Of a stretch of DNA of 64,000 bases, positions 5,999 through 33,118 are shown one piece after another. The DNA comes from Clostridiales bacterium. GTDB lineage: Bacteria > Bacillota > Clostridia > Lachnospirales > UBA12420. The number at the start of each line of letters is the position of its first letter. The first letter of the stretch is position 1. The translations under genes were made by a program, and so were the position numbers. The stretch is from positions 3,508 to 67,507 of the forward strand of contig DMOI01000040.1 of the NCBI GenBank assembly GCA_003452395.1, read 5' to 3'. Below the pieces are notes generated by a model. The model was not told where the DNA came from, ran no database searches, and was given only the letters and a program-made list of their open reading frames with translations.

Positions 5999-6121
5999 AA
6001 TTAATAGATAGTTTCCTTTTAGAAAATACATGCTTTTTAGTATATTGATATTTTGCTAGTAAATACTAAAAACAATACTGAATTTTTAATCAGATGTATC
6101 AAAACTAGGGGGGAATTTTTT

Positions 6122-13680: not shown

Positions 13681-13776
13681 ACACTCACCCTCATTCTAAC
13701 TACTGTTATGTAAAAAAATGGAATCCACTACATATATTATACATCTATATACAAAAATGTCAATATATGGAGCTGT

Positions 13777-13957
13777 TTTTTTGACAATAAGAAGTGCTCT
13801 TGGATTTGACTCATAAAATTATGCACTGAGATATTAAAAAACTTAGCAATACCATAAAAATTATCTCCTTTTTAATATATACTTTTATAATATGAAAAAG
13901 ATTATCCAAAGTGCATGGATATTAAAATAATAATAAAAACCATTGTCAGATTATATT
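13777..13957 (-). pseudogene. Eroded, internally deleted copy of the LysM gene plus its 5' region
   Basis: 13777-13807 matches 10987-11016. 13821-13868 matches 11207-11254. 13865-13957 matches 11486-11580 (RBS/promoter region). No intact reading frame. Confidence 0.7.
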
Positions 13958-14207
13958 TAATTATATATAATAAAGGCGAAAAGATAAAACTACCATATAT
14001 TATCACTGCAATTTAGAAATGTATAAAAAATCAAAATATTATTTGCACAATTATCTATAAAGTGCTATAATATTACTTAGATATTTTCAAAGCTTAGGAG
14101 TAGCTAAAGCATCTTTTTTAGGGGAAGGAGTGACTAATATATAACTAATATAGGTATTTCAAAATTATAATATAATACATTCGTTAAATCTACAAGAGGG
14201 AATAAAT

Positions 14208-15254
14208 ATGTATGATTTAGAGTTTGTTCATGAGAGAAATAAAATATTAATTAAATTATATTTTGCGTTAGTACTAATCGGACTTTTTGTTGCAGTACCA
14301 AATTCATATGGCTCGTCATGCTTTGTAGAAGTTGTAGTAACTATGCCGACTGCAGCAGGAGTCGCTTTAATTATTACGTATTTTATAAAGATTAAAAAGT
14401 ACATTGTAGCTTCAATGTATGCAATGATATTAAGTATAGGAGCTATTTGTTTTATACTTACATATGCTCATCCGATTGCCTTAAATTATATTTCATTTTT
14501 TATGCTCTTAGGTATGTCTACGTATTATCATAATTATAGGACAGTAATTCTTTCGTCAATAATTATCCTGTTTTCAACTAATTACTTTATGGTTATGGAT
14601 GGATCAGTTGTATTTCAAAGATTACCAGGAGATAATTTTATAAACATGGCTGTAGCAGCTAACATTGTTGTAATTATGGTTTGTATGATGGTGATAGGGC
14701 AAATATATATTGGCAAAAAAATGCTAAAACAGATAACTAGTACATATGAAAAACTTGAGAAGACTCAGAAGGAGCTTATTATTGATGAGTTAACAGGTAT
14801 ATACAATTATAGGTATTTTGAGTATATAGTACAAGAAAAGATAAAAAACAAAGATAAGTTTGAACTTATTATGATAGACATGGACAAGTTTAAAAATGTA
14901 AATGATACATTTGGACATTTAGCTGGTAATAAAGTGTTACAAGATTTAACAAATTTTATAAAATCAAAATTAGATGATAAAGATATATTTTGCAGATTTG
15001 GAGGAGACGAATTTTTTATAATATTGAATAATCTAGAAACTGCTGAGGAAACAGCAGAAAATATTATGAAAGACAAGAAAAAAATCTGTACGCTATATGA
15101 AGGTAATAAAATAAATTATGAGTTTAGTGTGGGACTATATAAACATGAAAATGAAAATGAAGATATAGACTATAAAGAAATAATAGAAAAAGTTGATAAA
15201 GCGATGTATGAAGCGAAACAAACAGGCGGAAATAAAATAATGAGATGTGGGTGA
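14208..15254 (+). CDS. Membrane-anchored GGDEF-domain diguanylate-cyclase-like protein
   Basis: 348 aa. About 5-6 N-terminal TM helices, then DELTGIYNYRYF...IMIDMDKFKNVNDTFGHLAGNKVL...CRFGGDEFFIIL...SVGL...AMYEAKQTGGNK. Confidence 0.88.
   Translation: MYDLEFVHERNKILIKLYFALVLIGLFVAVPNSYGSSCFVEVVVTMPTAAGVALIITYFIKIKKYIVASMYAMILSIGAICFILTYAHPIALNYISFFMLLGMSTYYHNYRTVILSSIIILFSTNYFMVMDGSVVFQRLPGDNFINMAVAANIVVIMVCMMVIGQIYIGKKMLKQITSTYEKLEKTQKELIIDELTGIYNYRYFEYIVQEKIKNKDKFELIMIDMDKFKNVNDTFGHLAGNKVLQDLTNFIKSKLDDKDIFCRFGGDEFFIILNNLETAEETAENIMKDKKKICTLYEGNKINYEFSVGLYKHENENEDIDYKEIIEKVDKAMYEAKQTGGNKIMRCG
14589..14959 (+). repeat. 371-bp direct repeat, copy 1 (inside the membrane GGDEF gene)
   Basis: Collinear with 16509-16879 at a constant offset of 1920 nt. 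About 11 mismatches by manual count, no indels. Confidence 0.9.
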
Positions 15255-15577
15255 AAGTAAATTGTATGTAACACAATATGAGGTTAAATAAATGATAATA
15301 TGAAATTTCTATGGAAAGAAATATATGACGCATAAATTTTAAAAATAAGTTATTATATCAAACTAATTATATACTGCGAATATATCCTAAAATATATTTA
15401 ACAAGTGCTTATTAGGGGAATGACTTACTGAAGAGCCGTATGCCTTAACAGGTCACGTGCCTCTACCAAACTGGAGGAGGAAGTTCAATAAAAGTGGCTA
15501 AAAAGCCTTTAAATATAAGTTTTTTTGAATTTGAAAATCGGCTATTATACATTATTTTTAAGGAGGTGATATTTATT

Positions 15578-16453
15578 ATGGTGTTGTCTAATTATTTACC
15601 AGATAATGAAAAAGTTATTTATAAATGTGAAAAGAAACTATGGATTGTTATAGCATATATTTGTTTTTTGATTTTATTTTTAATAGTCTTTGGAATTGCG
15701 TCTAAAGAGATAGTAAGTTATTATACAGAAGGTAATGTTATTTTTGATATGGTAAGTGATTATTCTTTGATGCTGATTACGGCTATATTTATAGTGATAT
15801 TAATTAGTGCAGGTGTCAGTTATATTTTTGATATATTTTTAATAACCAATAATTATATAGTTATAAGACGTGGTATACTGGGAGAAATATGTTTAATTAA
15901 AAGAAAACAAATAGTAGCGAAACGCGAAATAGTTATTACCGAAAAAGTAGCGAAATGTTATAAAGTTGAGTTTCTTTTAAAAAATGGTAAAATAATAAAT
16001 TCAGGTGACTTACACTGCAACTCTAGTACGTATTATGATTTAAATGGAAAACTTAATTATCCTAAGGTTGAAAATAAAAAAGATTTTTTAAATTTCAAAA
16101 TCAATTCAGATAATAATGTTTTAGTTAAGAAAAATTTAAATTTTTCTATAATAGGCTATGGTGTGTACTTGATTTTAATGATTTTCTCTTTACTTCTTTT
16201 TAGTGGAATTAATGAGAAATACGGTGAGCAAAAAAAATTTGAATTGCATGGAATAAGTAACAAATACACGGGATACAATAAAGGTACTATATATTATATT
16301 TCAATATTAGAAGATCAAAGTCAAAAAGAGTATAATATACATGTAAGTGGAGATATCTATGATTCTATTACACCTAATAAAAAAATTAAAGTTACAGGGA
16401 AGACAGGCTGCTTAGGTATTGTATATGACTTGAAAATGGTAAATATAGATTAA
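15578..16453 (+). CDS. Membrane protein with YdbS/YdbT-like bacterial PH (bPH_2) domain and a second TM plus a C-terminal beta-rich domain
   Basis: Start moved to ATG 15578, behind an AGGAGG RBS (track start 15494 is GTG with no RBS). LPDNEKVIYKCEKK + two TM + NNYIVIRRGILGEICLIKRKQIV is the bPH_2 pattern. Confidence 0.6.
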   Translation: MVLSNYLPDNEKVIYKCEKKLWIVIAYICFLILFLIVFGIASKEIVSYYTEGNVIFDMVSDYSLMLITAIFIVILISAGVSYIFDIFLITNNYIVIRRGILGEICLIKRKQIVAKREIVITEKVAKCYKVEFLLKNGKIINSGDLHCNSSTYYDLNGKLNYPKVENKKDFLNFKINSDNNVLVKKNLNFSIIGYGVYLILMIFSLLLFSGINEKYGEQKKFELHGISNKYTGYNKGTIYYISILEDQSQKEYNIHVSGDIYDSITPNKKIKVTGKTGCLGIVYDLKMVNID

Positions 16454-16508
16454 AGAAGTTTTAGTAGTAAAAATACGATTAAACAAAAGAGAGTGTAAAA
16501 TAAAGGTA

Positions 16509-16879
16509 ATGGTTATGGATGGATCAGTTGTATTTCAAAGGTTATCAAGAGACAATTTTATAAACATGGCTGTAGCAGCTAACATTGTTGTAATTATGGT
16601 TTGTATGATGGTGATAGGGCAAATATATATCGGCAAAAAAATGCTAAAACAGATAACTAGTACATATGAAAAACTTGAGAAGACTCAGAAGGAGCTTATT
16701 ATTGATGAGTTAACAGGTATATACGATTATAGGTATTTTGAGTACATAGTACAAGAAAAGATAAAAAATAAAGATAAGTTTGAACTTATTATGATAGACA
16801 TGGACAAGTTTAAAAATGTAAATGATACATTTGGTCATTTGGCTGGTAATAAAGTGCTACAAGATTTAACAAATTTTAT
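16509..16879 (+). repeat. 371-bp direct repeat, copy 2
   Basis: See 14589-14959. Similarity ends abruptly after ...caaattttat. Confidence 0.9.
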
Positions 16880-16919
16880 TGAAGAATGCAAAAAGATAAG
16901 TTCAACAGGAAATAAATAA
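16509..16919 (+). pseudogene. Truncated duplicate of the membrane GGDEF gene (last TM to mid-GGDEF domain, lacks the GGDEF motif)
   Basis: 136-aa ORF about 97% identical at nucleotide level to codons ~128-251 of 14208-15254. It then reads 13 unrelated codons and stops before the RxGGDEF active site. Confidence 0.75.
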
Positions 16920-17827: not shown

Positions 17828-19176
17828 AAAAAGAAATCTATATTGAAGGTAAAATTGAGGATGTAAAGTTTCCAAATAAGTCAATCCTAGAGCATGAAGG
17901 GAAAAAAGTTGTGGTAAAAGGTGGACTTATAGGGCAAACTGTGAGAGTTAGAGCAATAAGTAAAAGGGGCAGATTACAGGGGAAAATAGTTGAGGTTTTA
18001 GAGAAATCTCCGTATGAAAAGAAGGCATTATGCATGCATTTTGATACTTGTGGAGGGTGCACATATCAAAATTTAAGATATAGAGAGCAACTAAAGCTAA
18101 AACAAGATCAAGTAAAGAGTATATTAGATGAAGTTATAGATTATAAATATAAATTTTGTTCAATAGAGCCTAGTCCTACTGAATACGGATATAGAAATAA
18201 AATGGAGTTTTCTTTTGGTGATGAATATAAAGGGGGAGAGTTAACTCTAGGACTACACAAGAGTGCCTCTATGTATGATGTAATAACTACATCGAATTGC
18301 CAAATAGTAGATAAAGATTATAGGAAAATTCTTTGTGTTGTACTGCACTTTTTTAAAAAGCTTAACATTGATTATTATAACAGAAAGACACATATTGGTG
18401 GTTTGAGACATCTTATAATAAGAAAAGCTTCAAAAACAAATGAAATTATGGTAAATATAGTTACAAGTTCACAAATAGATGTTGATTTTAATCATTTTGC
18501 ACACAAACTTTTAAATATAAAACTAGATGGAGCTATAGAAAGTGTGATACATACTATTAATGATTCAATTTCTGATGTTGTTAAACCTGAAAAAATTGAA
18601 GTTTTATATGGAAGGGATTATATTGTCGAAGATATTTTAGGACTTAAATTTAAGATATCGCCATTTTCATTTTTTCAAACTAATTCTCTTGCGGCAGAGA
18701 AATTATATTCTATTATAAAAGGATTTGTGGGATTTACAAACAATAAAGTAATATTTGATCTTTATTCTGGTACAGGAACTATTGCTCAAATAATTGCTGT
18801 TGTTGCAAAAAAAGTATATGGTATTGAACTCATCGAAGAAGCAGTAGAAGCTGCACGTGAAAATGCTAAAATTAATGGACTGAAAAATTGTGAATTTATA
18901 GCAGGTGATTTGCTAGAAAAAATAGAAGAACTAAAGGATGAACCGCACGTAATAGTTATAGATCCACCAAGAGCTGGAATACATCCTAAGGCACTAGAAA
19001 AGATTATTAATTTTGATGCCGAGCATATAATATATGTTTCTTGTAATCCTATAACACTTGCAAATGATTTAAAGATATTGCAGGAAAATGGATATGATGT
19101 AGAAAAGGTTCAATGCGTGGATATGTTTCCGCACACACCTCATGTGGAGACTGTTGTGAAACTATCAGCGAATTGA
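17824..19176 (+). CDS. TrmA/RumA-family 23S rRNA (uracil-C5)-methyltransferase with TRAM domain and Fe-S cluster
   Basis: 450 aa. N-terminal TRAM-like barrel, Cys cluster CMHFDTCGGCTYQ, SAM fold DLYSGTGTI, catalytic YVSCNP. ATGA overlap with the upstream gene. Confidence 0.9.
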   Translation: MKKEIYIEGKIEDVKFPNKSILEHEGKKVVVKGGLIGQTVRVRAISKRGRLQGKIVEVLEKSPYEKKALCMHFDTCGGCTYQNLRYREQLKLKQDQVKSILDEVIDYKYKFCSIEPSPTEYGYRNKMEFSFGDEYKGGELTLGLHKSASMYDVITTSNCQIVDKDYRKILCVVLHFFKKLNIDYYNRKTHIGGLRHLIIRKASKTNEIMVNIVTSSQIDVDFNHFAHKLLNIKLDGAIESVIHTINDSISDVVKPEKIEVLYGRDYIVEDILGLKFKISPFSFFQTNSLAAEKLYSIIKGFVGFTNNKVIFDLYSGTGTIAQIIAVVAKKVYGIELIEEAVEAARENAKINGLKNCEFIAGDLLEKIEELKDEPHVIVIDPPRAGIHPKALEKIINFDAEHIIYVSCNPITLANDLKILQENGYDVEKVQCVDMFPHTPHVETVVKLSAN

Positions 19177-19321
19177 AATTAATGTAAAAACACATAAAAG
19201 AAGTAAGTCAGTAAGATTCAAAAGTTATATATTTAATGTAACTAATAAGGAGTTGCTTAGCTACATACCAAGTGGGTGAAAATAACTTTTACAATTCTAA
19301 TTTATTTAAGGGGGTGATATT

Positions 19322-19414
19322 ATGTCAAAAGGAGATAAACCATCGGCACCAAAACCACAAGTGAAGAAGCCAAAACAAGATAAACCCAAAAAAGATAAGA
19401 AAAATTATAATTAA
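19322..19414 (+). CDS. 30-aa lysine/proline-rich small protein
   Basis: Not in the track. AAGGGGGTGAT RBS 5 nt upstream of ATG. MSKGDKPSAPKPQVKKPKQDKPKKDKKNYN*, followed by a strong terminator. Confidence 0.4.
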   Translation: MSKGDKPSAPKPQVKKPKQDKPKKDKKNYN

Positions 19415-19424
19415 CGATAAGTAC

Positions 19425-19463
19425 AAAAGTTTTATCTAGATAAATTATAGATAAAACTTTTTT
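19425..19463 (+). terminator. Rho-independent terminator
   Basis: 14-bp stem aaaagttttatcta/tagataaaactttt plus a T run. Confidence 0.75.
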
Positions 19464-19495
19464 GTTATATTTAAAAACTTTTTTATCGAAATATA

Positions 19496-19524
19496 TTGAT
19501 TTTTTATTTATTTAGGTATATACT
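19496..19524 (+). promoter_or_regulatory. Sigma-A type promoter of the hydrogenase-like operon
   Basis: TTGATT, 17 nt, TATACT. Lies ~80 nt upstream of the first gene. Confidence 0.5.
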
Positions 19525-19603
19525 ATTCGAGTATGTAATTTCCATAATAGTATTTATTATACATAATCTTAAATTATAAAATTCCAAAAGAGGAGATTTT
19601 TTT

Positions 19604-21397
19604 ATGCTTGAATCATTTTATAATATAATGATGACCGATTGGTTGTCTATTTTCTTTGTTGCGCTAATTATTTTGATTAGTATTCCAATTTGTCTATTTT
19701 CTATAGGATATGTTAAAGAATATAGACAAAACTACTCGATAAAATATATTTATAGTATGATGACGTTTTTTATATTGTCAATGATCGGAGTCGTTTTCTC
19801 AAATAATAGTATAGTGTTTATGATATTTTGGGAGATTATGTCGATGACCTCGTTTTTTCTTGTTATTTATGAATACAAAAATAAAGAAAATTTGAGTTCG
19901 GGGATTATGTACTTTGTGATGACTCATATAAGCGGACTGGTGCTAATGATAATGTTTGCACTCATCTATAAATATACTAACAGTTTTGATTTTAAAGAAA
20001 TAATGGAATATTCTAACAAGTTTACTCTTACTCAAAAAACTATAATATTTATACTGGCTATAATAGGCTTTGGTGCAAAGGCTGGACTCATGCCACTTCA
20101 TGCATGGCTTCCGAAGGCTCACCCGTCAGCACCTTCAAATGTGTCAGCACTTATGTCGGGTGTTATGCTTAAGGTTGCTGTATATGGATTTATACGTACT
20201 GCTTTTATGTTTTTAGGAGATGTACCGTATAGCTATGGTATCTCCCTAATGATAATTGGAACATTGACAGCTATTATATCCATCTTGAACGCATCTGCCC
20301 AGCGTAATATGAAGAAGCTTTTAGCATATTCAAGCGCGGAAAATATAGGACTTATCTTTTCAGTTCTTGGACTTGCAATTATTTTCAAGAGCTATGGGTT
20401 GAATACTTTGGCAGTATTAGCTCTAACTGCAGGGTTGTTTCATGCAGTAAATCATGGCATTTTTAAGAGTCTTTTATTTACGGCTGCGGGTAGCGTTTTA
20501 TATTCGACAGGAACTAAAAATATGAATGAACTTGGAGGACTTTATAAAAAAATGAAATTTGCTACTTTTTGTGCATTTGTAGGAACTGCTGCAATTTCTG
20601 CTATACCTCCACTTAATGGATTCGCAAGTGAAGTAGCTATTTTTATGAGTTTTATACAAGTAGCAGGTAAGATAGATAGTATTTGGATGATAGTTATTAT
20701 TTTATGCGGAAGTATTTTAGCATTGACTAGTGGGGCTGTAATGTATGTTTCAGTAAAAAGTTTTGGAATTACATATCTGGGGGAGCCAAGAAGTATAAAA
20801 GCACAAAACATACATAAGGTACCGATTTCTATGAATATTGGAATGGGATTGTTATCGGTATATGCAATTTTATTTGGGGTCCTTTCGAAATTTATATTTG
20901 AATATATAATAAAAATTTCACAAGATATTATAAATGTAGGGAACATTAGACTTGATGAAAATACACTTCAAAACTTTGTTGGTTTTGATATAGTAGTAAT
21001 GGCTAGCATAATTATCTCGGTGACTGTAGTGTTTTTACTAGTAAATTACATAACTCGCAAGAATAAAACATTTAAAGTATATGATACGTGGGGATGTGGA
21101 TTTAATGAAGCAAAACCATATATGCAATATAGTGGGAGCGGATTTACTCAGCCACTAAGTAAAATAGCGACAAGTATTATAGGCTACAAAAAAACAGTAT
21201 TAAAAGAAGAAACAATCTTTTTTAGACAACATACCACTGACATGATTGAAAAATATTTATATAATCCAATTATTAGTTTGGTAGATTATCTTGCTATAAA
21301 GATTACAAAAATACATTACGGACAAATTCAGGTATATATTGCCTATATAATTATGTCATTAATTATTGCGGTAGTATGCGTAGTTAAGTTTATCTAG
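19604..21397 (+). CDS. HyfB/HycC-like antiporter-type membrane subunit (NuoL/ND5 family)
   Basis: 597 aa, polytopic. GLMPLHAWLPKAHPSAPSNVSALMSGVMLKVAVYG signature of proton-conducting membrane transporter subunits. Confidence 0.88.
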   Translation: MLESFYNIMMTDWLSIFFVALIILISIPICLFSIGYVKEYRQNYSIKYIYSMMTFFILSMIGVVFSNNSIVFMIFWEIMSMTSFFLVIYEYKNKENLSSGIMYFVMTHISGLVLMIMFALIYKYTNSFDFKEIMEYSNKFTLTQKTIIFILAIIGFGAKAGLMPLHAWLPKAHPSAPSNVSALMSGVMLKVAVYGFIRTAFMFLGDVPYSYGISLMIIGTLTAIISILNASAQRNMKKLLAYSSAENIGLIFSVLGLAIIFKSYGLNTLAVLALTAGLFHAVNHGIFKSLLFTAAGSVLYSTGTKNMNELGGLYKKMKFATFCAFVGTAAISAIPPLNGFASEVAIFMSFIQVAGKIDSIWMIVIILCGSILALTSGAVMYVSVKSFGITYLGEPRSIKAQNIHKVPISMNIGMGLLSVYAILFGVLSKFIFEYIIKISQDIINVGNIRLDENTLQNFVGFDIVVMASIIISVTVVFLLVNYITRKNKTFKVYDTWGCGFNEAKPYMQYSGSGFTQPLSKIATSIIGYKKTVLKEETIFFRQHTTDMIEKYLYNPIISLVDYLAIKITKIHYGQIQVYIAYIIMSLIIAVVCVVKFI

Positions 21398-21410
21398 GAG
21401 GTCAACAAAC

Positions 21411-22340
21411 ATGCTTATATATATTGTTTATATTTTACAACCTTTACTAATTTTACTTTTAGCACCTCTGTTTATGGGTATTTTAGGTAAAGTCAAAGCT
21501 TGTTTTAGAGGATATACGGGACCATCAGTATTTCAAGTGTACTATGATATAGCCAAACTAATGAAAAAAGACGAAGTAATTTCCAAAAGTAGTTCTTTTG
21601 TAACAACAATAGGACCCTTGTTTACGCTCGTTGCGGCAGTGTCATGCACATTCATTATTCCTGTATTCTATACATCTTTAGCATTTAGTTTTGGAAATAT
21701 ATTTGTTATAATTTTTACATTAGGTATCATAAAGTTTATTACTTCTTTAATAGGTTTAGACTCGGCAAGCACATTTGGAGGAATGGGATCAAGTAGGGAG
21801 CTTTTTATTTCGATGCTTGCTGAACCAATAATGTTTGTTGTGATTACATTTTTGTTCATTGAGACTAAGTCATTTAATATATTTACGATAGCTTATGCAA
21901 ACAGCACACAGCTGTCATTTGGGCCAGGTCATGTACTTGCTGCACTAGCATTTTTTATATTGCTTTTAGCAGAAAATGCAAGGATGCCGGTAGATAATCC
22001 AGAGACTCATTTGGAACTTACGATGGTCCACGAAGCAATGATATTAGACTTATCTGGGAAAAGGTTGGCGTATATTGAGTTAGCTTCAGCGATAAAATTT
22101 GTATTATTTTTAACAATTCTTATTAATGGATTTTTGCCTTATGGAATAGCTACGGGACTTAATTTATTAACAATGGGTACGGCAATAATTTTGTTTATCA
22201 TTAAACTAATCGGATGTCTTATTGTGATAGCTGTTATAGAGACGACAATGGCGAAGTTTAGATTATTCAGAGTGCCAGAACTCTTGACATTCGCATTTGC
22301 TCTAGGAATTGTCTCGATAATAATAAATCACTACGCGTAA
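21411..22340 (+). CDS. HycD/HyfC-like membrane subunit (NuoH/ND1 family)
   Basis: 309 aa. ENARMPVDNPETHLELTMVHEAMILDLSG is the HycD/NuoH hallmark region. Confidence 0.88.
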   Translation: MLIYIVYILQPLLILLLAPLFMGILGKVKACFRGYTGPSVFQVYYDIAKLMKKDEVISKSSSFVTTIGPLFTLVAAVSCTFIIPVFYTSLAFSFGNIFVIIFTLGIIKFITSLIGLDSASTFGGMGSSRELFISMLAEPIMFVVITFLFIETKSFNIFTIAYANSTQLSFGPGHVLAALAFFILLLAENARMPVDNPETHLELTMVHEAMILDLSGKRLAYIELASAIKFVLFLTILINGFLPYGIATGLNLLTMGTAIILFIIKLIGCLIVIAVIETTMAKFRLFRVPELLTFAFALGIVSIIINHYA

Positions 22341-22354
22341 GGAGGGGAGCATTT

Positions 22355-22966
22355 ATGTTAGAAACAATTCTGGAAGTTTTATTGATAGTGACGATTTTAA
22401 TGACGGGATTTAGAAGGATAAAATTGTTCATTTATGCCTTTGCGGTACAGTCACTATGTATTGCATTAATTTGTTTTTATTTAGCATACACAACTGGGGA
22501 AAACAGTTTATATAGTGTAGGCGTAATGACAATATTCATGAAAGTAATTTTAACAAGTGGACTGATTAAAAGGGTATCAAAAAGTTTAAAAGAAAATAGA
22601 GAAAAAGAATTTATAATAGGCGGGCTATTGTCATATGTGTTATGCATAGCTGGAATTATTATTACATACGGCCTTTTAGCGGATTTCGGACCGCCTTTCC
22701 TAAAAGTAGGAGTTGTACTCATGATAGTTGGCTCGATTCTTCTAGTAGGACGAAAAGAAGCCATTACGCAAATGATTGGTTTTTTAACTATAGAAAATGG
22801 GATTGTACTCCTAGAAATTTATATGGTTAAAATGTCACTGATTATTGAGGCAGGATTAATGCTCGAGGTTGTAATACTTGCAATCATAATGGGTACTATG
22901 ATTTTTAATATAAATAGAGAATTTGATACCATTAATACTGATACATTCTCAAATACTAAGCGATAG
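22355..22966 (+). CDS. HyfE-like small membrane subunit
   Basis: 203 aa, ~6 TM. ...ITQMIGFLTIENGIVLLE... resembles hydrogenase-4 component E. Confidence 0.75.
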   Translation: MLETILEVLLIVTILMTGFRRIKLFIYAFAVQSLCIALICFYLAYTTGENSLYSVGVMTIFMKVILTSGLIKRVSKSLKENREKEFIIGGLLSYVLCIAGIIITYGLLADFGPPFLKVGVVLMIVGSILLVGRKEAITQMIGFLTIENGIVLLEIYMVKMSLIIEAGLMLEVVILAIIMGTMIFNINREFDTINTDTFSNTKR

Positions 22967-22977
22967 CAGGTGAAGAA

Positions 22978-24438
22978 ATGATTATTAACATGATATTTGT
23001 ATTATTTATAGGTATGATTCTAATATCTAGTTTACTTAAAAACATTAAAGTTATTTCAATTATAAATATAGTTGGTACAATGCTAATTGGAGGCTGTTTT
23101 ATTAGTGTTGTGGATAGCGTTTATAAATATGAACACATAAGTTTCTTAAATAATTTTTTATATATTGATAGCTTAAATGTGATTCAGATATTTATTATTA
23201 TGAGCATAAGTATAATCTCTTTGCTATACGCACACAAGTATATAGCTCATGAGACGAAAGAGCATATAATTACTATAGGTAAGGCCAAAACATTTTATAT
23301 ACTATTTGATTTGTTCGTGATGTCAATGATTATTGTTGCAATAAGTAACAATATTGTTGCAATGTGGATGGGACTTGAGGCTACTACAATCTCAACAGCA
23401 TTTCTGATTGGTTTTAGTAAAAACAAGCTTTCTATTGAAGCGGCATGGAAATATATAATTATATGTTCATTAGGTATAGGTATAGGGCTTATAGGAATTA
23501 TTCTGTTTATATATTCAGCAGGTGTCACAGAGGCTTCGGAAATAGCAAACTGGACATATCTTGTAAGCAAAGCAGGGATTTTAGATAAAGATATTGCAAA
23601 AATAGCTTTTGTATTTATTTTTATAGGAATAGGGACGAAAGCAGGAATTGCACCTATGCATACATGGCTGCCTATTAGTCACAGTGAAGCACCATCTCCG
23701 ATTAGTGCACTGATGTCAGGAGCTCTATTAAACCTTGCACTATATGTTATAGTGAGGTTCTATATAATTATAAAACTAGTAAGCGGACTTGAAAATCTAA
23801 AATACTTGTTTATTATATTTGGATGCATATCTCTTATAGTTTCTTCGTTTAGCATATTGAGGCAAACTAATTATAAACGTCTTCTTGCATTTTCATCGAT
23901 AGAAAACATAGGAATAATGACATTAGGTTTTGGATTTGGAGGGTATATTGCGATATTTGGTTCGTTATTACATGGAGTAATACATGCATTCGGGAAAGCG
24001 TTACTTTTTCTTGTCTCGGGGAATATTCTCAGTGTCTATAAAACAAAACGAATGGATGTAGTCCAAAATTTAATAAAAACTATGCCAATTAATTCAGTAT
24101 TTCTAATATTAGGAATGCTAATCATTGTGGGAGCTCCACCGTTTGCTTCATTCTTAAGTGAATATAAAATAATGATTGGTGGTATACATAATGATTACCT
24201 CATTTACGCTATCATTTATGCTGTGTGTTTACTATTAGTTTTTATCGGTTTTTTAAAGTCTTTTATAAAAATGATATTTGAACAAGATAACAGTAAAATA
24301 TATACAAAGTCAGATATGGACAAAGAAAATATTCTTCCAATCGTTATAGCCTTTGTGCTTGTAGTGCTTACAAGCGTTTTCTTTGGAGGTTATTTGACTG
24401 AGATACTTGACAGAGCAACATTAATAATTGAAAGTTGA
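22978..24438 (+). CDS. HyfF-like antiporter-type membrane subunit (NuoN/NuoM family)
   Basis: 486 aa. GIAPMHTWLPISHSEAPSPISALMSGALLNLALY signature. Confidence 0.88.
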   Translation: MIINMIFVLFIGMILISSLLKNIKVISIINIVGTMLIGGCFISVVDSVYKYEHISFLNNFLYIDSLNVIQIFIIMSISIISLLYAHKYIAHETKEHIITIGKAKTFYILFDLFVMSMIIVAISNNIVAMWMGLEATTISTAFLIGFSKNKLSIEAAWKYIIICSLGIGIGLIGIILFIYSAGVTEASEIANWTYLVSKAGILDKDIAKIAFVFIFIGIGTKAGIAPMHTWLPISHSEAPSPISALMSGALLNLALYVIVRFYIIIKLVSGLENLKYLFIIFGCISLIVSSFSILRQTNYKRLLAFSSIENIGIMTLGFGFGGYIAIFGSLLHGVIHAFGKALLFLVSGNILSVYKTKRMDVVQNLIKTMPINSVFLILGMLIIVGAPPFASFLSEYKIMIGGIHNDYLIYAIIYAVCLLLVFIGFLKSFIKMIFEQDNSKIYTKSDMDKENILPIVIAFVLVVLTSVFFGGYLTEILDRATLIIES

Positions 24439-24450
24439 AAATTGAAAATT
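24427..24450 (+). repeat. Short TTGAAA(A/G) heptamer run (family C)
   Basis: attgaaagttgaaaattgaaaatt spans the stop codon of the HyfF-like gene. Confidence 0.5.
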
Positions 24451-24470
24451 AATGGGTAGGATGTGGGAAA

Positions 24471-26036
24471 ATGAAAATAAATCATTTAGAAAAAGAGATA
24501 ACTAATATAAATAATAGAATCCAAACTCAAATAAAAAATAATAATGAGTTATACATAAATACAACATTTAGAGAAGTAAAAAATATTGTAGGGATATTAA
24601 TAAATAACCTAAAACTAATTTTTGTAGGTGAGTTTTGCATTCAAGAAGAATTATTTAGTATAAATATAATATTAACGAATAGAAGACAAGGTTATTTTGT
24701 AATTGTAAGATATGATGTTAGTGATGCACTTGTGTCATTGCAAGATTTTATTCTTCAAAGTCATTTATTTGAAAGAGAGATTTCTGATTTATATGGAATA
24801 AAGATTGTAGATGGTAAGGATACTAGGCATATTGTGAAACACGAGGGATGGCCAGAAAATATTTTCCCACTTAGGAAGGATTATGCATTTGGCGATAAAG
24901 TTCCGCTTTTAAGTGAGGTGAGCGGATATAAGTTTAAGAAAATATCGGGCGAAGGCGGATATCAGATTCCTGTTGGACCAGTACATGCAGGAATAATTGA
25001 GCCTGGGCATTTTAGATTTAGTGTTATTGGAGAGCCTATAGAAAATCTGGAGATACGCCTTATGTACAAACATAAGGGTATTGAAAAAATATGTGAAAAT
25101 ATTAATGCAAATAAGCTAAATCTTTTGTTTGAGAGAGTTGCAGGTGAAAGCTCGGTGGCATATGCTGAATGCTATGCATTACTTGTTGAAAAACTAATAG
25201 AGTTTAAACCTACAGATGAGGTTAAAGCATTAAGAGTTGTTTTACTAGAACTAGAGAGAATCTATAACTATCTAGACGATATAGCTGGAATGTGTGTTGA
25301 CGTTGGATATAGCTATCCTGCTAAGAAATTTAACTATTTTTCAGAAATGATACATCAACTATGTGAAAGAGTAACGGGCAGTAGATTTTTGAGGAACACA
25401 ATTGTCCCTTGTGGGATAAATATTGATTTTAATGAAAAGAATAAAGCTGATATTTTAGATACATTAAAAAATATGGAGAAAAGATTAAATGCTATAATAG
25501 AAAAAACACTAGGCTCCGTTTCATTCTTAGATAGAGTTGAGGATACAGGAGTAGTCTATAATAAAACAGCGAATAGGTTAGGTATGACTGGGGTTGTTGG
25601 AAGAGCAGCTGGTATAGAGTATGACGTAAGGCGAAGCTTTCCATACGAATTATATAGAGAAATCAAATTAAAAGCAAATACTGAAATTTCGGGTAGCGTA
25701 TTTGAAAGATATAAATTAAAGATAGCTGAGATTAGAGATGCATTTCTATTTATAGGGAAAGCATTATCGCTTATCGAAGGTAATGTTGTTAAAAATAAAC
25801 CAGAAGTAATGGTAGAAGAGGGATTAGAAGCGTACGCTACAGTAGAAACAGTAAAAGGGGAACTAGTTGTATATGGCAAAATGGGCAAAGATAACAAATT
25901 CGATAGAATTTATTTTAAAACACCGTCATTTACAAATTGGAATGGTCTAACCTATGCGGTCTCGGGAGAAATAGTGCCAGATTTTCCTTTATGTAATAAA
26001 AGTTTCAATATGTCTTATGCTGAAAATGATAGGTAG
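24471..26036 (+). CDS. HycE/HyfG/EchE-like fused NuoC-NuoD-type large subunit lacking the [NiFe] cysteine ligands
   Basis: 521 aa. NuoC-like N-terminal part (LFEREISDLYGI...WPENIFPLRKDY). Large-subunit core VGPVHAGIIEPGHFRF, LELERIYNYLDD. L1 position reads ERVAGESSVAY. The C-terminus reads SFNMSYAENDR*. Confidence 0.85.
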   Translation: MKINHLEKEITNINNRIQTQIKNNNELYINTTFREVKNIVGILINNLKLIFVGEFCIQEELFSINIILTNRRQGYFVIVRYDVSDALVSLQDFILQSHLFEREISDLYGIKIVDGKDTRHIVKHEGWPENIFPLRKDYAFGDKVPLLSEVSGYKFKKISGEGGYQIPVGPVHAGIIEPGHFRFSVIGEPIENLEIRLMYKHKGIEKICENINANKLNLLFERVAGESSVAYAECYALLVEKLIEFKPTDEVKALRVVLLELERIYNYLDDIAGMCVDVGYSYPAKKFNYFSEMIHQLCERVTGSRFLRNTIVPCGINIDFNEKNKADILDTLKNMEKRLNAIIEKTLGSVSFLDRVEDTGVVYNKTANRLGMTGVVGRAAGIEYDVRRSFPYELYREIKLKANTEISGSVFERYKLKIAEIRDAFLFIGKALSLIEGNVVKNKPEVMVEEGLEAYATVETVKGELVVYGKMGKDNKFDRIYFKTPSFTNWNGLTYAVSGEIVPDFPLCNKSFNMSYAENDR

Positions 26037-26047
26037 GTGAGTTTATA

Positions 26048-26755
26048 ATGGGAATTATTTTAGATAGAATTAAATATGGTAATGAAACAAAAAAGGACAT
26101 ATTATTTGATAATCCAGATTCATACGGTAAAGTAAATGTAGATAGTGATAAATGTAATGGATGTACAAAATGTGTAAATGAATGTGTTGCAAACGCTATT
26201 GAAATTAAAAAGGGTAAAGCAGTTGTTGATTATAAAAAATGCATTTACTGTAGAAACTGTATCGGTGTATGTGATAAGTTAGCAATAGAAATGGAACATG
26301 ACTGCAAATTTTGCGACATAGAACAAGCAGGCAATGAGCTTGCGAGAAAGATATACGAGAAATTTAAGAGATCGCTGGTACTTAGATCAGTTGATACGGG
26401 TTCGTGCAATGCTTGCATGCTGGAGCTTTCTGCTACTCAAAATACATACTATGATATCTCAAGGTTTGGGGTGAAATTTGCAGCATCTCCAAGACATTCA
26501 GACGGTATCGTAGTAACAGGGCCAGTAACAATTAACATGAGGGAAGCGTTAATAAAGACATACAATGCTATGCCAGAACCGAAACTAGTTATTGCAGTAG
26601 GTACTTGCTCTTTTGATGGAGGAATATTTAAAGATGGGTACGGGAATGTGGAAAGACTTAGCGACATTATGCCAGTGGACTTGTACATACCGGGGTGTCC
26701 ACCTTCCCCACAGGGTATTGTGTATGGATTGCTGAAGCTAATAGATAGGATTTAA
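26048..26755 (+). CDS. Fusion of a 2x[4Fe-4S] ferredoxin domain (HycF-like) with a NuoB/HycG-type small subunit
   Basis: 235 aa. CNGCTKCVNEC and CIYCRNCIGVC in the N-terminal part. GSCNACMLE, GTCSFDGG and PGCPPSP (NuoB-type cluster ligands) in the C-terminal part. Confidence 0.85.
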   Translation: MGIILDRIKYGNETKKDILFDNPDSYGKVNVDSDKCNGCTKCVNECVANAIEIKKGKAVVDYKKCIYCRNCIGVCDKLAIEMEHDCKFCDIEQAGNELARKIYEKFKRSLVLRSVDTGSCNACMLELSATQNTYYDISRFGVKFAASPRHSDGIVVTGPVTINMREALIKTYNAMPEPKLVIAVGTCSFDGGIFKDGYGNVERLSDIMPVDLYIPGCPPSPQGIVYGLLKLIDRI

Positions 26756-26763
26756 AAAATATC

Positions 26764-26792
26764 TTGACAAAAAACGGAAAAGTATTTATAAT
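26764..26792 (+). promoter_or_regulatory. Consensus sigma-A promoter of the aspS leader
   Basis: TTGACA, 17 nt, TATAAT. Confidence 0.75.
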
Positions 26793-26799
26793 CTAGTAA

Positions 26800-27116
26800 C
26801 ATATTAAATCTATGATGAGAAGAAGTAAGTGATTAACTCAACCAGAGAGAGAGGTCTAGGCTGAAAGCCTCTTTGAGCAATAAGTACTGAATAACACCTC
26901 GGAGAGTTGGCAAAATCAAACGTAACTCGCGTTAAGAGAAAAAAGGAATTGAAAATTGAAAAGCTAAGATTGAAGGTTATTACATAGAACTTTCAACTCT
27001 CAACTTTCAACTTTCAACTTAAATAAGGGTGGCACCACGGGTAGAAAACTCGTCCCATAGTAGAAGTCAGATGTCGGAGTTTAGATATCGGAATTTTATA
27101 TGAGACGAGTTTTTTG
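26800..27116 (+). promoter_or_regulatory. T-box riboswitch leader controlling aspS
   Basis: Stem I elements: TGATGAGAAGAAGTA K-turn region, AGAGAG, distal CTGAAAG loop. Conserved T-box AAGGGTGGCACCACGGG at ~27024-27042. Terminator arms aaaactcgtc (27045-27054) / gacgagtttt (27104-27113) plus a T run. Confidence 0.85.
26947..27020. repeat. Palindromic TTGAAA(A/G) heptamer element (family C) inside the T-box leader
   Basis: 5' arm aattgaaaattgaaaagctaagattgaaggtt, loop attacatag, 3' arm aactttcaactctcaactttcaactttcaactt. Located where Stem III normally sits. Confidence 0.7.
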
Positions 27117-27149
27117 TTCACAAAAAATCACAAAACAGGAGGAAACAAC

Positions 27150-28940
27150 ATGAGTGAAAATATGAAGGGAATGCATCGCACACATAGATGTACAGATGTA
27201 ACAGAAAAATTTATAGATGAAAAGGTAGTAGTAGCAGGTTGGGTTGATGTAAGACGTGATCTTGGAGGACTTATTTTTATAGACCTTAGAGATGTTAGCG
27301 GTAAGGTTCAAGTTGTATTTAATGCAAGTTATATACACAGAGAAGGTTTTGAAAAAGCTGAGAAGTTAAGAAGCGAGTATGTAATTATGGTAGAAGGGAT
27401 TGTTGAAAAAAGAGCAGATGGAACTGTAAATACTAGAATGAAAACAGGTACAGTAGAAATAGTGGCTACTGATTTTAGAATATTATCAGAATCACAAACG
27501 CCTCCATTTCAAATAGAAGAAAATGCTAATGTAAACGAAGAGTTGAGACTGACATATAGATATCTTGATTTGAGACGTCCTGACATACAAAGAAACTTTA
27601 TTTTAAGACACAATGTGTATAAGTCAGTTAGAGAGTATTTTGCAGCTGAGAGATTTTTAGAAATAGAAACTCCTGTACTTACAAAAAGCACTCCAGAAGG
27701 AGCAAGAGATTATCTGGTTCCTAGTAGAGTGCATCCAGGTATGTTTTATGCGTTACCACAATCTCCGCAGTTATTTAAGCAGCTTCTTATGGTGTCTGGA
27801 TTTGATAGATACATGCAAATTACGAAATGTTATAGAGATGAGGATCTTAGAGCTGATAGACAACCAGAATTTACTCAAATAGACACAGAAATGTCATTTG
27901 TTGATGTTGATGATGTTATCCGAATAAATGAAAGAATGCTTAAAAAAGTATTTAAAGATTGCATGAATCTAGATATAGAGCTACCAATTAAGAGAATGAC
28001 TTATGAATATGCAATGAATAAATACGGTAGCGACAAACCAGATTTAAGATATGGACTTTCGATAGTGGATTTATCAGATGTAGTTAAAAACTGTGGATTT
28101 AAAGTGTTTGCTGATGCTATAGCAGATGGCGGTAGCGTAAGAGCTATAAATGTAAAGGGACAAGTGGAAATGCCACGTAGACAGCTTGATAGCTTGACAG
28201 AGTTTGTTAAAATATTTAAAGCAAAGGGTATGGCTTGGATAGGGATTGAAGCTGATGGGACGTACAAATCTGCTATAACAAAATTTTTGACTAATGAAGA
28301 GACTGCAGATATAGTAAAAGCTATGGACGGAAAACCAGGAGATCTTTTATTATTCTGTGCAGATAAAAATAAAGTAGTATTTGATTCACTAGGAGCTTTA
28401 AGACAGGAGCTAGCAAAAAGATTAGGACTTATTAATAAAGATGAATATAATTTCGTATGGATAACAGAATTTCCACTTCTTGAGTATTCAGAAGAGGATA
28501 AGAGATATGTTGCTATCCACCACCCATTTACAGCTCCTATGGACGAAGATATAGAACTACTCGATGAAGATCCAGTAAAAGTTAGATCTAAAGCTTATGA
28601 TATAGTGTTAAATGGATATGAGATAGGTGGAGGAAGCGTAAGAATACATCAACGAGAAATACAAGAAAAAATGTTCAAGCTTCTTGGATTTACTGAGGAA
28701 CAATCATACGAGAGATTCGGATTTTTACTAAATGCATTTAAATATGGAGTGCCACCTCATGCAGGACTTGCATATGGACTTGACCGCCTTGTAATGATTA
28801 TGACAGGATGTGATAATATAAGAGATGTAATAGCATTCCCGAAAACTAAAGATGCTAGTTGTCTAATGACAGAGGCACCAAATGTAGTAGAAAATAAGCA
28901 ACTTAAAGAGTTGTCGATAAAGTTGGATTTAAGTAAATAA
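27150..28940 (+). CDS. aspS: Aspartate--tRNA ligase (bacterial type with GAD insertion domain)
   Basis: 596 aa from ATG 27150, behind an AGGAGGA RBS. Class II motifs FYALPQSPQLFKQ, RCYRDEDLRADRQPEFTQID, GGGSVRIH, GLDRLVM. Confidence 0.95.
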   Translation: MSENMKGMHRTHRCTDVTEKFIDEKVVVAGWVDVRRDLGGLIFIDLRDVSGKVQVVFNASYIHREGFEKAEKLRSEYVIMVEGIVEKRADGTVNTRMKTGTVEIVATDFRILSESQTPPFQIEENANVNEELRLTYRYLDLRRPDIQRNFILRHNVYKSVREYFAAERFLEIETPVLTKSTPEGARDYLVPSRVHPGMFYALPQSPQLFKQLLMVSGFDRYMQITKCYRDEDLRADRQPEFTQIDTEMSFVDVDDVIRINERMLKKVFKDCMNLDIELPIKRMTYEYAMNKYGSDKPDLRYGLSIVDLSDVVKNCGFKVFADAIADGGSVRAINVKGQVEMPRRQLDSLTEFVKIFKAKGMAWIGIEADGTYKSAITKFLTNEETADIVKAMDGKPGDLLLFCADKNKVVFDSLGALRQELAKRLGLINKDEYNFVWITEFPLLEYSEEDKRYVAIHHPFTAPMDEDIELLDEDPVKVRSKAYDIVLNGYEIGGGSVRIHQREIQEKMFKLLGFTEEQSYERFGFLLNAFKYGVPPHAGLAYGLDRLVMIMTGCDNIRDVIAFPKTKDASCLMTEAPNVVENKQLKELSIKLDLSK

Positions 28941-31730: not shown

Positions 31731-31774
31731 AATAGTAAAGCTTCGGGAGTTATATCTCTCGAAGCTTTACTATT
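31731..31774. terminator. Bidirectional hairpin terminator shared by convergent genes
   Basis: 15-bp arms aatagtaaagcttcg/cgaagctttactatt. Overlaps the 3' end of the minus-strand recombinase gene. Confidence 0.65.
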
Positions 31775-32811
31775 TTAGCAGCTTTTCTTCTTCGTTCATC
31801 ATCTATTTGGGCATAATGTTTTTTGGTAGTATTAACATCTTTATGGCCAAGCACATCAGCTACAAGGTAGATATCCCCTGTTTCTCTATAGAGATTGGTT
31901 CCATAAGTGCTACGTAATTTATGGGGAGATATCTTTTTTAGATTAGTAACAAGTGCGGAATATTTTTTAACTATATTTTGAACTGAGCGAACATTCAAAC
32001 GTTTATTTTGTAGTGACAATAAAAATGCTTTTTCATGACCTGATTCGGGTACCATGGAATTTCTTTCCTGTAAATAGTCAATTAAAGCTCTTTTAACCTC
32101 ATCGCTAAAGTAAACTATTACTTCATTTCCACCTTTGCGAGTTATTTTAATGCCATTTGTATTCATATCTATATCGTTTATATCAAGTCCTACACATTCG
32201 GAAACACGAATCCCAGTGCCAAGTAAAAGTGAAATGAGGGCAAGATCACGTATTTTAGTTTTGGAATGATATTTTTGTTGAAATTTTGTCAAATCGTTTC
32301 CTGACTCCACTTCATCGAGTAGTTTAACCATTTCATCTACTTCAAGTCTGATTATATTTTTTTGATGAATTTTAGGTAAATCAACGAGTAAGGAAGGATT
32401 ATTTTTAATTTTTCTTTTTTTGTAGAAATATTTATAAAATGTTCTAAGGCTAGCAAGCTTGCGAGCCTTAGCTTTTTCGTCATTGGCATGTTCAATAACT
32501 TTCTCTGTTCTTTCATCCTTCTTTGTAAAATATGATAAGTACTCCAAATATCTCTCTATATCCTCTGGGGTTATTTTATCAAGAAAATCAACAGTAATTT
32601 TAGTTTTATCTTCATTTATATAAAGTTCTTTAAATAAAAAATCAAAGAAAACAATTAAATCATAAGCATATGCAATACGAGTTTTAACTCCCGTTGTCTG
32701 TTCTATACCACGAAAAAAGTCAAAACAAAAAGATGGGAGTATATTTGTAAGCTCCCTAAGTTTGGCAGTGAATTTTAATTTTTGTTGAATCTGATATGAA
32801 TTCTTGTCCAT
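31750..32811 (-). CDS. Tyrosine site-specific recombinase, XerC/XerD family
   Basis: 353 aa from ATG 32811, behind a GGAGG RBS. N-terminal SAM-like core-binding domain. Catalytic region ...LLLGTGIRVSE..., HKLRSTYGT, GHKDVNTTKKHY (R..HxxR..Y pattern). Confidence 0.88.
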   Translation of the reverse strand: MDKNSYQIQQKLKFTAKLRELTNILPSFCFDFFRGIEQTTGVKTRIAYAYDLIVFFDFLFKELYINEDKTKITVDFLDKITPEDIERYLEYLSYFTKKDERTEKVIEHANDEKAKARKLASLRTFYKYFYKKRKIKNNPSLLVDLPKIHQKNIIRLEVDEMVKLLDEVESGNDLTKFQQKYHSKTKIRDLALISLLLGTGIRVSECVGLDINDIDMNTNGIKITRKGGNEVIVYFSDEVKRALIDYLQERNSMVPESGHEKAFLLSLQNKRLNVRSVQNIVKKYSALVTNLKKISPHKLRSTYGTNLYRETGDIYLVADVLGHKDVNTTKKHYAQIDDERRRKAAKIVKLREI

Positions 32812-33118
32812 AAGAAACCTCCAGTGTAATGATATTAGCAAAAACAAAATACAAGTTGTATACTAGTCACTTTTTAATTCATTCTACCACATTTTATTAA
32901 TAATTAAAAGTGAATTTCAATAATAGGAAAAATGTCTTACAAAAACAGGACTTTTTTCCTATAGTATTATGATAAAGATAGTGATATAATAAGGAGTATC
33001 ATCAATATTACAAATTTTTCTTTATTAAAATTTCGTTACAAACATTGAAAAATTGATAAGTTGTGATAAAATTAATTTGTAATATTGATGAAATACAAAA
33101 ATAAAAAGGGGGATGTTT

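Follow-up and report, generated by a model that had tools for sequence, protein, structure and literature searches.

It has been proposed that Ehr (energy-converting / Ech-hydrogenase-related) complexes stand between membrane-bound hydrogenases and respiratory complex I as intermediates. They are reported in Geobacter, Nitrospira, ammonia-oxidising archaea and bacteria of the candidate phyla radiation (CPR) (PMC7894505, PMC10284858, PMC10432482, PMC7304191), and the literature places them near group 4f of the [NiFe]-hydrogenases, without CxxC motifs and with unknown function (PMC10284858, PMC10432482, PMC7304191, PMC6349859). Here we analyse a 64-kb stretch of contig DMOI01000040.1 from a Clostridiales bacterium (the window, which always means this whole stretch), in which a plus-strand operon of six genes occupies positions 19604-26755. 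An earlier reading of the DNA made without database searches (the sequence-only reading) had called this operon the strongest candidate in the window for an uncharacterised system. We find instead that it is a further member of a known, named family and nothing categorically new, the same six-gene order having already been described under the names Ehr, Hyq and group 4f. We put the probability that the operon encodes an Ehr-family complex, and not a [NiFe]-hydrogenase, at about 0.9.

In Geobacter sulfurreducens, Ehr is encoded by GSU0739-45, and the subunit names EhrA, C, L and S come from the work on that organism (PMC7894505). The sole ehr relative with genetic and physiological data is Hyq, the 'endo-hydrogenase' of Azorhizobium caulinodans (hyqRBCEFGI), which has orthologues in Rhizobium and Azospirillum (PMC2650096, PMC3357923); it is regulated by NifA, occurs in aerobic diazotrophs with ubiquinone and is claimed to be an H2:quinone oxidoreductase. 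Group 4f clusters (Desulfitobacterium hafniense ACL22288-93, Desulfosporosinus orientis Desor_1265-1270) have these six genes in identical order, and their physiological role is itself only predicted (PMC9888536, PMC7248197). The MBS (Mbx) complex of Pyrococcus furiosus is hydrogenase-derived and complex-I-like, has ceased to make H2 and has ferredoxin as donor (PMC7684303, PMC8165549).

The operon and its place in the Ehr family

The list of open reading frames (ORFs) contains six plus-strand ORFs exactly where the sequence-only reading had put them. The subunits were identified with Pfam and NCBIfam (Table 1) and given the published Ehr names (EhrA, B, C, D, L, S), and the gene content is as that reading had described it: two antiporter-like subunits, a HycD/NuoH-like and a HyfE-like subunit, a large subunit and a small subunit. 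These correspond to the NuoL-like, NuoH-like, HyfE-like, second antiporter-like, Cys-less large and small Fe-S subunits of Ehr, and the loci of Nitrospira, Thaumarchaeota and CPR bacteria have the same A-B-C-D-L-S order as the window operon and Cys-less motifs.

The large subunit, EhrL, has E. coli HycE as its best sequence match in the PDB (7z0s_E, E 2.9e-43). In two alignments to HycE (native numbering), the [NiFe] ligands C241, C244, C531 and C534 are replaced by A224, S227, S515 and E518, so that the subunit is Cys-less at these positions, as had been read from the letters; the pattern [AS]SSE is found at the four former ligand positions in at least 118 of 121 clade sequences. In place of the cysteine motifs L1 (RxCGxC) and L2 (DPCxxC / LCYxC), window EhrL has RVAGES and NMSYAE. 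True hydrogenases carry ERxCGxC in the N-terminal and KSFELCYxCxDR in the C-terminal motif, the large Cys-less group ER[IV]SGD[STEN] and KSFNLSY[SA]GNDL, and the window clade ERV[AS]GES and KSFNMSY[SA]ENDR. The last residue of EhrL aligns with the Arg after which HycI cuts HycE, and there is therefore no C-terminal extension to remove. An AlphaFold2 model of EhrL from a 62-sequence alignment (pLDDT 89, pTM 0.91; less confident at residues 170-179, in the beta1-beta2 loop) has HycE 7z0s_E as its best Foldseek match (TM-score 0.91/0.89), followed by E. coli NuoCD (0.84-0.86).

The residues that take the place of the ligands are themselves constant. Among the 121 clade sequences (54-100% identity), the pocket residues E226, S227, Y231, E233, K462 and E518 reach at least 97% conservation and are specific to the clade; where other groups have the 'canopy' Arg (95% conserved), the clade has K462. 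Conservation of D277, N513 and S515 extends to all of Ehr. The Cys-less proteins are also marked by an acidic residue, E226 here and Asp elsewhere, at a site between the two N-terminal cysteines that were lost. As far as sequence constancy can tell, the EhrL pocket is under selection. Within the clade, the EhrL of the C. estertheticum subgroup is without 43 residues of the NuoC-like domain.

A neighbour-joining tree of 137-139 sequences, built without bootstrap support and not including Geobacter EhrL, nests the window clade in a Cys-less radiation (~108 representatives, zero CCCC members). The sister group of this radiation is the CCCC clade, with HycE and HyfG placed outside and NuoCD at the root. 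Several features of Ehr are found in the operon, among them the Cys-less large subunit, the six-subunit arrangement and a tree position by group 4f. The clade includes relatives at 54-85% identity in C. magnum, C. drakei, C. muellerianum, C. homopropionicum, C. estertheticum, Fervidicella, Parasporobacterium, Desulfonispora and a metagenome-assembled genome (MAG) of the Haloplasmataceae; in clustering at 50% it collapses to one full-length representative, with the next relatives at 35-42% identity. Its identity to other Ehr is 30-42%, and it is likened to Geobacter Ehr by description, not by sequence.

The A-B-C-D-L-S order is found again, amid unrelated flanks, at 11 loci of this clostridial clade and at about 70 loci of more distant bacteria and archaea. 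A scan of one genome per species gave 80 loci (L001-L080), labelled by ORFs and BLAST with crude ORF calling, with A-B-C-D-L-S or S-A-B-C-D-L as the usual order in Nitrospira, Thaumarchaeota, Verrucomicrobia, Acidobacteria, Methanosarcina, CPR bacteria and Firmicutes. Two Nitrospirota loci (L017, L070) carry two full six-gene Ehr clusters in tandem on the same strand, in which both large subunits are Cys-less and the pocket signatures differ (STSSG, SDTSG). A survey of Clostridium acetogens discarded its 'group 4f' matches for want of the L1/L2 metal-binding motifs (PMC9431212).

Further features set the window clade apart from other Ehr. EhrS carries a fused 2x[4Fe-4S] domain, whereas Nitrospira, archaeal and CPR Ehr are without the fusion; and EhrA is N-terminally shortened, the window protein by ~65 aa relative to HyfB (roughly two transmembrane helices), with lengths of ~590-606 aa at every clade locus compared with 640-720 aa in HyfB and other family members. 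Group 4f, the sister clade in the tree, keeps all four [NiFe] cysteines (ERxCGxC ... LCYxCxDR), of which window EhrL has none, but its Cys-bearing Firmicutes members (Thermincola, L008; Desulfosporosinus, L041; Sporomusa, L050) share the ferredoxin::NuoB fusion with EhrS. For the working of the input and pump modules of Ehr, group 4f is the best model.

E. coli Hyf/FHL (HyfABCDEFGHIJ; HycBCDEFG, PDB 7Z0S) is the closest solved structure by both sequence and fold, and the six Ehr subunits have their best-named homologues in HyfB, C, E, F, G and I, but FHL has the [NiFe] cysteines, separate HycF and HycB, FdhF, an extension removed by HycI and adjacent hyp genes, none of which occurs at the ehr locus. 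MBS is a functional precedent for a hydrogenase scaffold with a new acceptor, although the EhrL match to MBS 6u8y_L is much weaker (1.3e-20) than that to HycE. MBS keeps two of the four [NiFe] cysteines, and its proximal cluster is of the three-Cys type and includes a free catalytic Fe (PMC8165549), whereas EhrL has none of the four and EhrS has four cysteines; moreover, MBS has 13 subunits with a full Mrp module, and Ehr has six subunits. With complex I (Nuo) the operon shares homologues of the NuoB, C, D, H, L and M/N core, the fold of NuoCD and the pump residues, but it is without NuoE/F/G, separate NuoA, I, J and K, the quinone ligands and the tandem-Cys N2.

The sequence-only reading had also described a minimal module without partner genes. 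Its report that the window has no fdhF, hycB, hyp/hycI or NuoE/F/G is borne out, as tblastn with E. coli queries found no match in the 64 kb at E<1e-3 for FdhF, HycB/HyfA, HypA-E, HycH/I or NuoE/F/G. The idea that the operon is orphaned or unusually minimal did not hold, the same six-gene set being the standard architecture of the family. The five Pfam-annotated clade loci (C. magnum, C. drakei, Fervidicella, Desulfonispora, C. estertheticum) have the same six-gene order in wholly different flanks, with no adjacent formate dehydrogenase (FDH), Hyp, NuoEF, nuoG or hycB gene. The partner search was based on E. coli references and on Pfam of tight neighbours only, that is, of 49 same-strand ORFs <=150 nt from the cluster across 86 family loci, zero of which belong to the window's clade; among these 49, Pfam showed no recurrent catalytic partner, and the commonest family was an ArsR-type helix-turn-helix (4/49). 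In the BLAST labelling of the 86 loci, NuoG-like ORFs appear just in C. drakei (L083, opposite strand, three genes off) and in L039, and neither is conserved. We also considered whether orthologues always lie beside a catalytic partner that is displaced in this genome, and this is not so in the clade loci or in the 86 family loci. The partner-free module recurs across the family, and the want of a partner is therefore the family norm and not an oddity of one genome.

Electron path, ion pump and competing explanations

The fusion of a ferredoxin-like and a NuoB-like domain in EhrS, noted in the sequence-only reading, is confirmed by Fer4 domains and PF01058 in the same ORF. The N-terminal domain has two CxxCxxCxxxC motifs (C36-C46 and C65-C75), and the proximal-cluster cysteines C120, C123, C187 and C217 have a hydrogenase-type layout (GSC120NAC123 ... 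GTC187 ... PGC217PP). All 12 Fe-S cysteines (12/12) are kept in every clade member examined (55-85% identity). The N-terminal domain is weakly HycF/HyfH-like (tblastn to HycF, 3.5e-6) and would therefore be the equivalent of the electron-receiving NuoI/MbhN subunit in MBH. In MBS the three-Cys proximal cluster is the catalytic centre, and complex I has a tandem Cys-Cys (PMC8165549); EhrS shows neither geometry.

The residues of the pump are largely retained. EhrA has Glu77 in transmembrane helix 5 (TM5), Lys159 in TM7, Lys190 in TM8 and Glu343 in TM12, and EhrD has TM5 Glu134, TM7 Lys221 and TM12 Glu395, with Asn at the TM8 position as in HyfF. EhrB retains equivalents of NuoH D63, K66, R148, E157, D213, E216, E220, K274 and R293, and is changed at E218 (to His), E228 (to Asp) and R46 (to Tyr); of the 15 charged or Tyr positions at which NuoH, HycD and HyfC agree, it matches 9, including D195, E198 and E202 in the TM5-6 loop region. 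The EhrC family profile matches E. coli HyfE at 7e-55, and at least 92% of 65 family sequences share K63, R133 and the membrane Glu147 of EhrC (98% in the case of Glu147).

Our best reading is a ferredoxin-coupled ion pump with an unknown acceptor, which is also what the sequence-only reading had suggested. The operon is best explained as encoding EhrABCDLS, a membrane complex with six subunits that belongs to the complex I / group 4 hydrogenase superfamily and descends from group-4f-like [NiFe]-hydrogenases, with loss of the [NiFe] site. Reduced ferredoxin, for example from pyruvate:ferredoxin oxidoreductase (PFOR), would dock on the fused ferredoxin-like domain of EhrS, and electrons would pass through three [4Fe-4S] clusters to a chamber at the EhrL/EhrS/EhrB interface, where the former Ni-Fe pocket would now be lined by the clade-invariant E226, S227, Y231, K462, S515 and E518. 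A redox or protonation change in this carboxylate-lined pocket may be relayed through the acidic TM5-6 loop of EhrB and through EhrC Glu147 to EhrD and EhrA, which would export H+ or Na+. The terminal acceptor would not be H+ at a [NiFe] site, and a quinone is improbable. We give this mechanism as a whole even odds.

Several points weigh against it. Fermentative Clostridiales have few obvious acceptors beyond H+, NAD(P)+ and CO2. Ferredoxin as donor is suggested by analogy with the HycF/MbhN-like domain and by a PFOR gene 10 kb away, the complexes of the window clade are known from their genes alone, and the tree is without bootstrap values. Because EhrS matches neither the MBS nor the complex I geometry, no known acceptor chemistry is directly supported. 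In the wider family, moreover, 11 of 82 small subunits have most or all of the four proximal [4Fe-4S] cysteines replaced (DTDN, DPDN and TCDD patterns; L012, L016, L030, L039, L040, L044, L047, L060, L065, L067, L076). Their hosts include Methanosarcina, a Dehalococcoidales MAG, CPR Daviesbacteria and Saccharibacteria, Firestonebacteria and Bdellovibrionales, among others. These 11 loci retain the full six-gene module and the large-subunit pocket Asp, and some Ehr complexes may therefore work without electron transfer; such complexes appear to be redox-dead.

A narrower form of the ferredoxin-driven pump, in which the window clade performs new chemistry at the carboxylate-lined site (E226, S227, Y231, K462, S515, E518), is put forward only tentatively, and we think it rather unlikely. 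Two versions are possible, the reduction of an unrecognised acceptor or a cysteine-independent H2 turnover as claimed for Hyq.

It is also unlikely, in our judgement, that the complex is a redox-independent or redox-gated Mrp-like cation/proton antiporter, with the L/S cap structural or regulatory and the Fe-S chain at most a sensor of the ferredoxin redox state. The intact antiporter-like EhrA and EhrD, the want of an acceptor or partner identifiable from the window or the 49 tight neighbours, and the 11 loci with replaced cysteines are all in keeping with such an antiporter. Against this, the conservation of all 12 Fe-S cysteines in the clade, 8 of them in the ferredoxin domain, is hard to explain without electron transfer. 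The Mrp antiporter is also a seven-subunit assembly (MrpA-G) without a peripheral redox arm, whereas Ehr has the L/S arm, and the antiporter-like Ehr subunits gave only sub-threshold MrpA/D matches in NCBIfam; by these features the complex is not an Mrp antiporter.

That the complex makes or oxidises H2 without the four canonical cysteines, as a non-canonical hydrogenase, we regard as improbable. Protons are a natural ferredoxin sink in a fermenter, EhrL retains the hydrogenase 'EPGHFRF' beta1-beta2 motif, and EhrS retains the hydrogenase-type CxxC of the proximal cluster. The case for such activity comes from Hyq, in which hyqBCEFGI encodes the same six structural subunits in the same order as ehr, with a Cys-less NuoC::NuoD HyqG (504 aa) and a four-Cys small subunit, and whose deletion mutants lose H2 recycling, microaerobic H2 evolution also being reported (PMC2650096, PMC3357923). 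The Hyq sequence compared here was the Rhizobium orthologue L091, from a plasmid collection; its HyqG (motifs GRTSGDS ... PLCNKSFNCSYSGHDL) lies inside the same Cys-less radiation as EhrL but in a different subclade, at 30% identity. Of the conserved HyqG residues (Cys-258, Cys-491, Cys-497), EhrL shares just the 'PLC' Cys (C508), which does not indicate HyqG orthology, and HyqI is a plain 177-aa NuoB without the ferredoxin domain of EhrS. The 'CSAG' group (P0194) was considered as Hyq and rejected, being an environmental group. All four [NiFe] ligands are replaced in the window clade, the 'canopy' Arg has become Lys, EhrL has no C-terminal maturation extension, and the 64 kb contain no hyp/hycI. 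The evidence for Hyq itself is in vivo only, and in the words of its own authors a Ni,Fe site is 'uncertain, if not unlikely' (PMC3357923); other authors regard Ehr as unable to interact with H2 (PMC7304191, PMC10284858).

A low probability likewise attaches to the view that the operon encodes the membrane part of some larger assembly, with the gene for its catalytic partner, for example a formate dehydrogenase, lying in another part of the genome. For Margulisbacteria and Saganbacteria, an FDH-Ehr complex has been put forward as a hypothesis (PMC6349859), and the Ehr subunits of Geobacter are most abundant on formate (PMC7894505). However, fdhF, nuoE/F/G and hycB were found neither in the window nor, by Pfam, in the five annotated clade loci, no partner is conserved in the 86 labelled loci or among the 49 tight neighbours (none from the window's clade), and the fused ferredoxin domain of EhrS would be the complex's own entry point.

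Least probable, and in our view very unlikely, is a ferredoxin:quinone oxidoreductase in the manner of a stripped-down complex I or photosynthetic NDH-1: the NuoH-, NuoB- and NuoD-like core that forms the quinone chamber of complex I is present, but the quinone ligands His38 and Tyr87 of T. thermophilus Nqo4 align with Ile176 and Gly225 in EhrL, and the Ehr family also occurs in CPR bacteria, which are not known to have respiratory chains, and Clostridium is not generally known to have quinones. Marreiros et al. reportedly noted in 2013 that Ehr lacks the quinone-binding His and Tyr of complex I. Hyq was inferred to be quinone-reactive by its authors (PMC3357923), but the EhrS proximal cluster is without the tandem Cys-Cys of N2 (PMC8165549 for N2), and the sole menaquinone-biosynthesis Pfam match in the window falls on an ABC substrate-binding protein. 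This match (PF02621, 56147-57118, 323 aa, 34.5 bits, above threshold) was rejected, as NCBIfam and the context identify an SsuA/NMT1-type protein followed by permease and ATPase genes (56147-58450); it is an annotation trap in searches for quinone synthesis.

Locus layout, regulation and neighbouring genes

The six ehr ORFs are separated by gaps of 13, 14, 11, 32 and 11 nt, and each is preceded by its own Shine-Dalgarno (SD) sequence. The spacing had been described as tight or overlapping; it is tight, and there are zero overlaps. The promoter that had been proposed near 19496 is a 9/12 consensus match alone, and matches of such quality are not enriched in the window (59 found vs 48 +/- 6 in shuffles), so that on its own it does not exceed chance. 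No Rfam element (riboswitch or leader) was found 5' of the operon in 19150-19650. The 3' end is better defined. A perfect 12/12 sigma-70-type promoter (TTGACA-17-TATAAT) and a full-length T-box leader stand before aspS and open its transcription unit, so that the 3' boundary of the ehr operon is clear and agrees with the operon end that had been read at the aspS promoter. The T-box (84.6 bits, E 5e-19) is absent from the default Rfam scan because its score is just under the gathering score of 93.

Between the gene for a TrmA-like methyltransferase and ehrA, there is a 30-codon Lys/Pro-rich ORF (MSKGDKPSAPKPQVKKPKQDKPKKDKKNYN, 19322-19414) with a strong SD. A 14-bp AT-rich hairpin with a T-run (19425-19461, -12.8 kcal/mol) ends this small ORF and precedes the promoter-like site.

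Regulatory signals were also compared between the window and its relatives. Nothing convincing that resembles a Rex-box (TTGTTAANNNNTTAACAA) occurs 5' of ehrA in the window or in eight clade loci. Six relatives (C. muellerianum, C. drakei, C. magnum, Fervidicella, C. estertheticum and a Clostridium MAG) have one or two copies of a palindromic operator-like motif 5' of ehrA (consensus TTAATATTCGAATACTAA, 21-24 bits), which is unique within each 21-kb relative locus. In the window the best site for TTAATATTCGAATACTAA (19518-19539) scores 9.0 bits, below the shuffle maximum of 13.2 +/- 1.7, and was rejected. Of the 11 clade loci, 5 have an orthologous protein of ~335 aa with two tandem MarR winged-helix domains encoded beside the ehr operon; its orientation varies, and identity between loci is 42-96%. 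It is a candidate cognate regulator for the TTAATATTCGAATACTAA operator in the relatives; tblastn found no homologue of it in the window.

Table 1. The ehr operon, nearby window features and regulatory features in relatives (named by locus).
Feature	Coordinates	Strand	Description and evidence
ehrA	19604-21397	+	HyfB/NuoL-type antiporter-like membrane subunit, 597 aa; PF00361 (Proton_antipo_M) 2e-54; NF005086 (hydrogenase 4 subunit B) 6e-168, under cut-off
ehrB	21411-22340	+	NuoH/HycD-type membrane anchor, 309 aa; PF00146 (NADHdh) 1e-32
ehrC	22355-22966	+	HyfE-like small membrane subunit, 203 aa; NF008556 2.7e-16, under curated cut-off
ehrD	22978-24438	+	HyfF/NuoM-N-type antiporter-like subunit, 486 aa; PF00361 (Proton_antipo_M) 1.7e-55; NF005044 (hydrogenase 4 subunit F) 1.4e-120
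ehrL	24471-26036	+	NuoC::NuoD-fused HycE/HyfG-type large subunit, 521 aa; PF00329 (Complex1_30kDa) and PF00346 (Complex1_49kDa)
ehrS	26048-26755	+	2x[4Fe-4S] HycF/NuoI-like domain fused to NuoB/HycG-like domain, 235 aa; Fer4 families and PF01058 (Oxidored_q6) 2e-29
ehrS, ferredoxin-like 2x[4Fe-4S] part (residues 28-82)	26129-26293	+	Pfam Fer4_6, Fer4_10, Fer4, Fer4_7
Promoter-like site TTGATT-17-TATACT	19496-19524	+	80 nt 5' of ehrA; consensus scan 9/12
Promoter before aspS	26764-26792		TTGACA-17-TATAAT, 12/12
T-box leader	26803-27060		full-length, before aspS
aspS	27114-28940
PFOR gene	6053/6122-9649		about 10 kb from the ehr operon
Operator-like motif, L002	4946-5048		5' of ehrA
Operator-like motif, L083	4884-4985		5' of ehrA
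Operator-like motif, L081	4961-5008		5' of ehrA
Operator-like motif, L084	5137-5158		5' of ehrA
Operator-like motif, L086	5132-5153		5' of ehrA
Operator-like motif, L003	5059-5151		5' of ehrA
Tandem-MarR gene, L083	3742-4758	-
Tandem-MarR gene, L084	12298-13302	-
Tandem-MarR gene, L086	2148-3164	+
Tandem-MarR gene, L002	3803-4834	-
Tandem-MarR gene, L003	1237-2349	+

The PFOR gene that had been read upstream of the operon is present, with its start at 6053 or 6122. By Pfam the remaining ORFs of the window are housekeeping genes (methyltransferases, aspS, miaA, GGDEF proteins, sporulation genes, transketolase, glgB), and there is no nif context among the window ORFs. GGDEF-domain genes form a cluster at 11746-16919, with genes at 11746-13680 (-) and 14208-15254 (+) and a 136-aa ORF at 16509-16919 that covers no more of the 161-position GGDEF model than positions 3-69, probably as a truncated remnant; among these genes, a 319-aa ORF (15494-16453) has no Pfam match. 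A single gene of the phage-integrase family (tyrosine recombinase; 31750-32847, minus strand) is opposed to its co-directional housekeeping surroundings.

Meaning for the Ehr family

Ehr complexes occur widely in bacteria and archaea, with nitrifiers, CPR bacteria and acetogens among their hosts. In the literature searched, there is no assay of a purified Ehr complex and no identified electron acceptor, and the sole functional claim is that from Hyq in vivo mutants. Database labels on the clade genes read 'NADH-quinone oxidoreductase subunit C', 'hydrogenase-4 component G' and 'formate hydrogenlyase subunit 5', and none of them is justified. The locus defines a clostridial subclade, compact and well conserved, that has a ferredoxin entry domain of its own, an Fe-S chain conserved in full and a distinctive two-carboxylate pocket. 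If the clade does perform new chemistry at this pocket, it would be the cleanest system for finding the function of Ehr, because its hosts presumably have no quinones. Cultured Clostridium species (C. drakei, C. magnum, C. estertheticum and others) carry members of the subclade and would be practical hosts for testing the function of Ehr.

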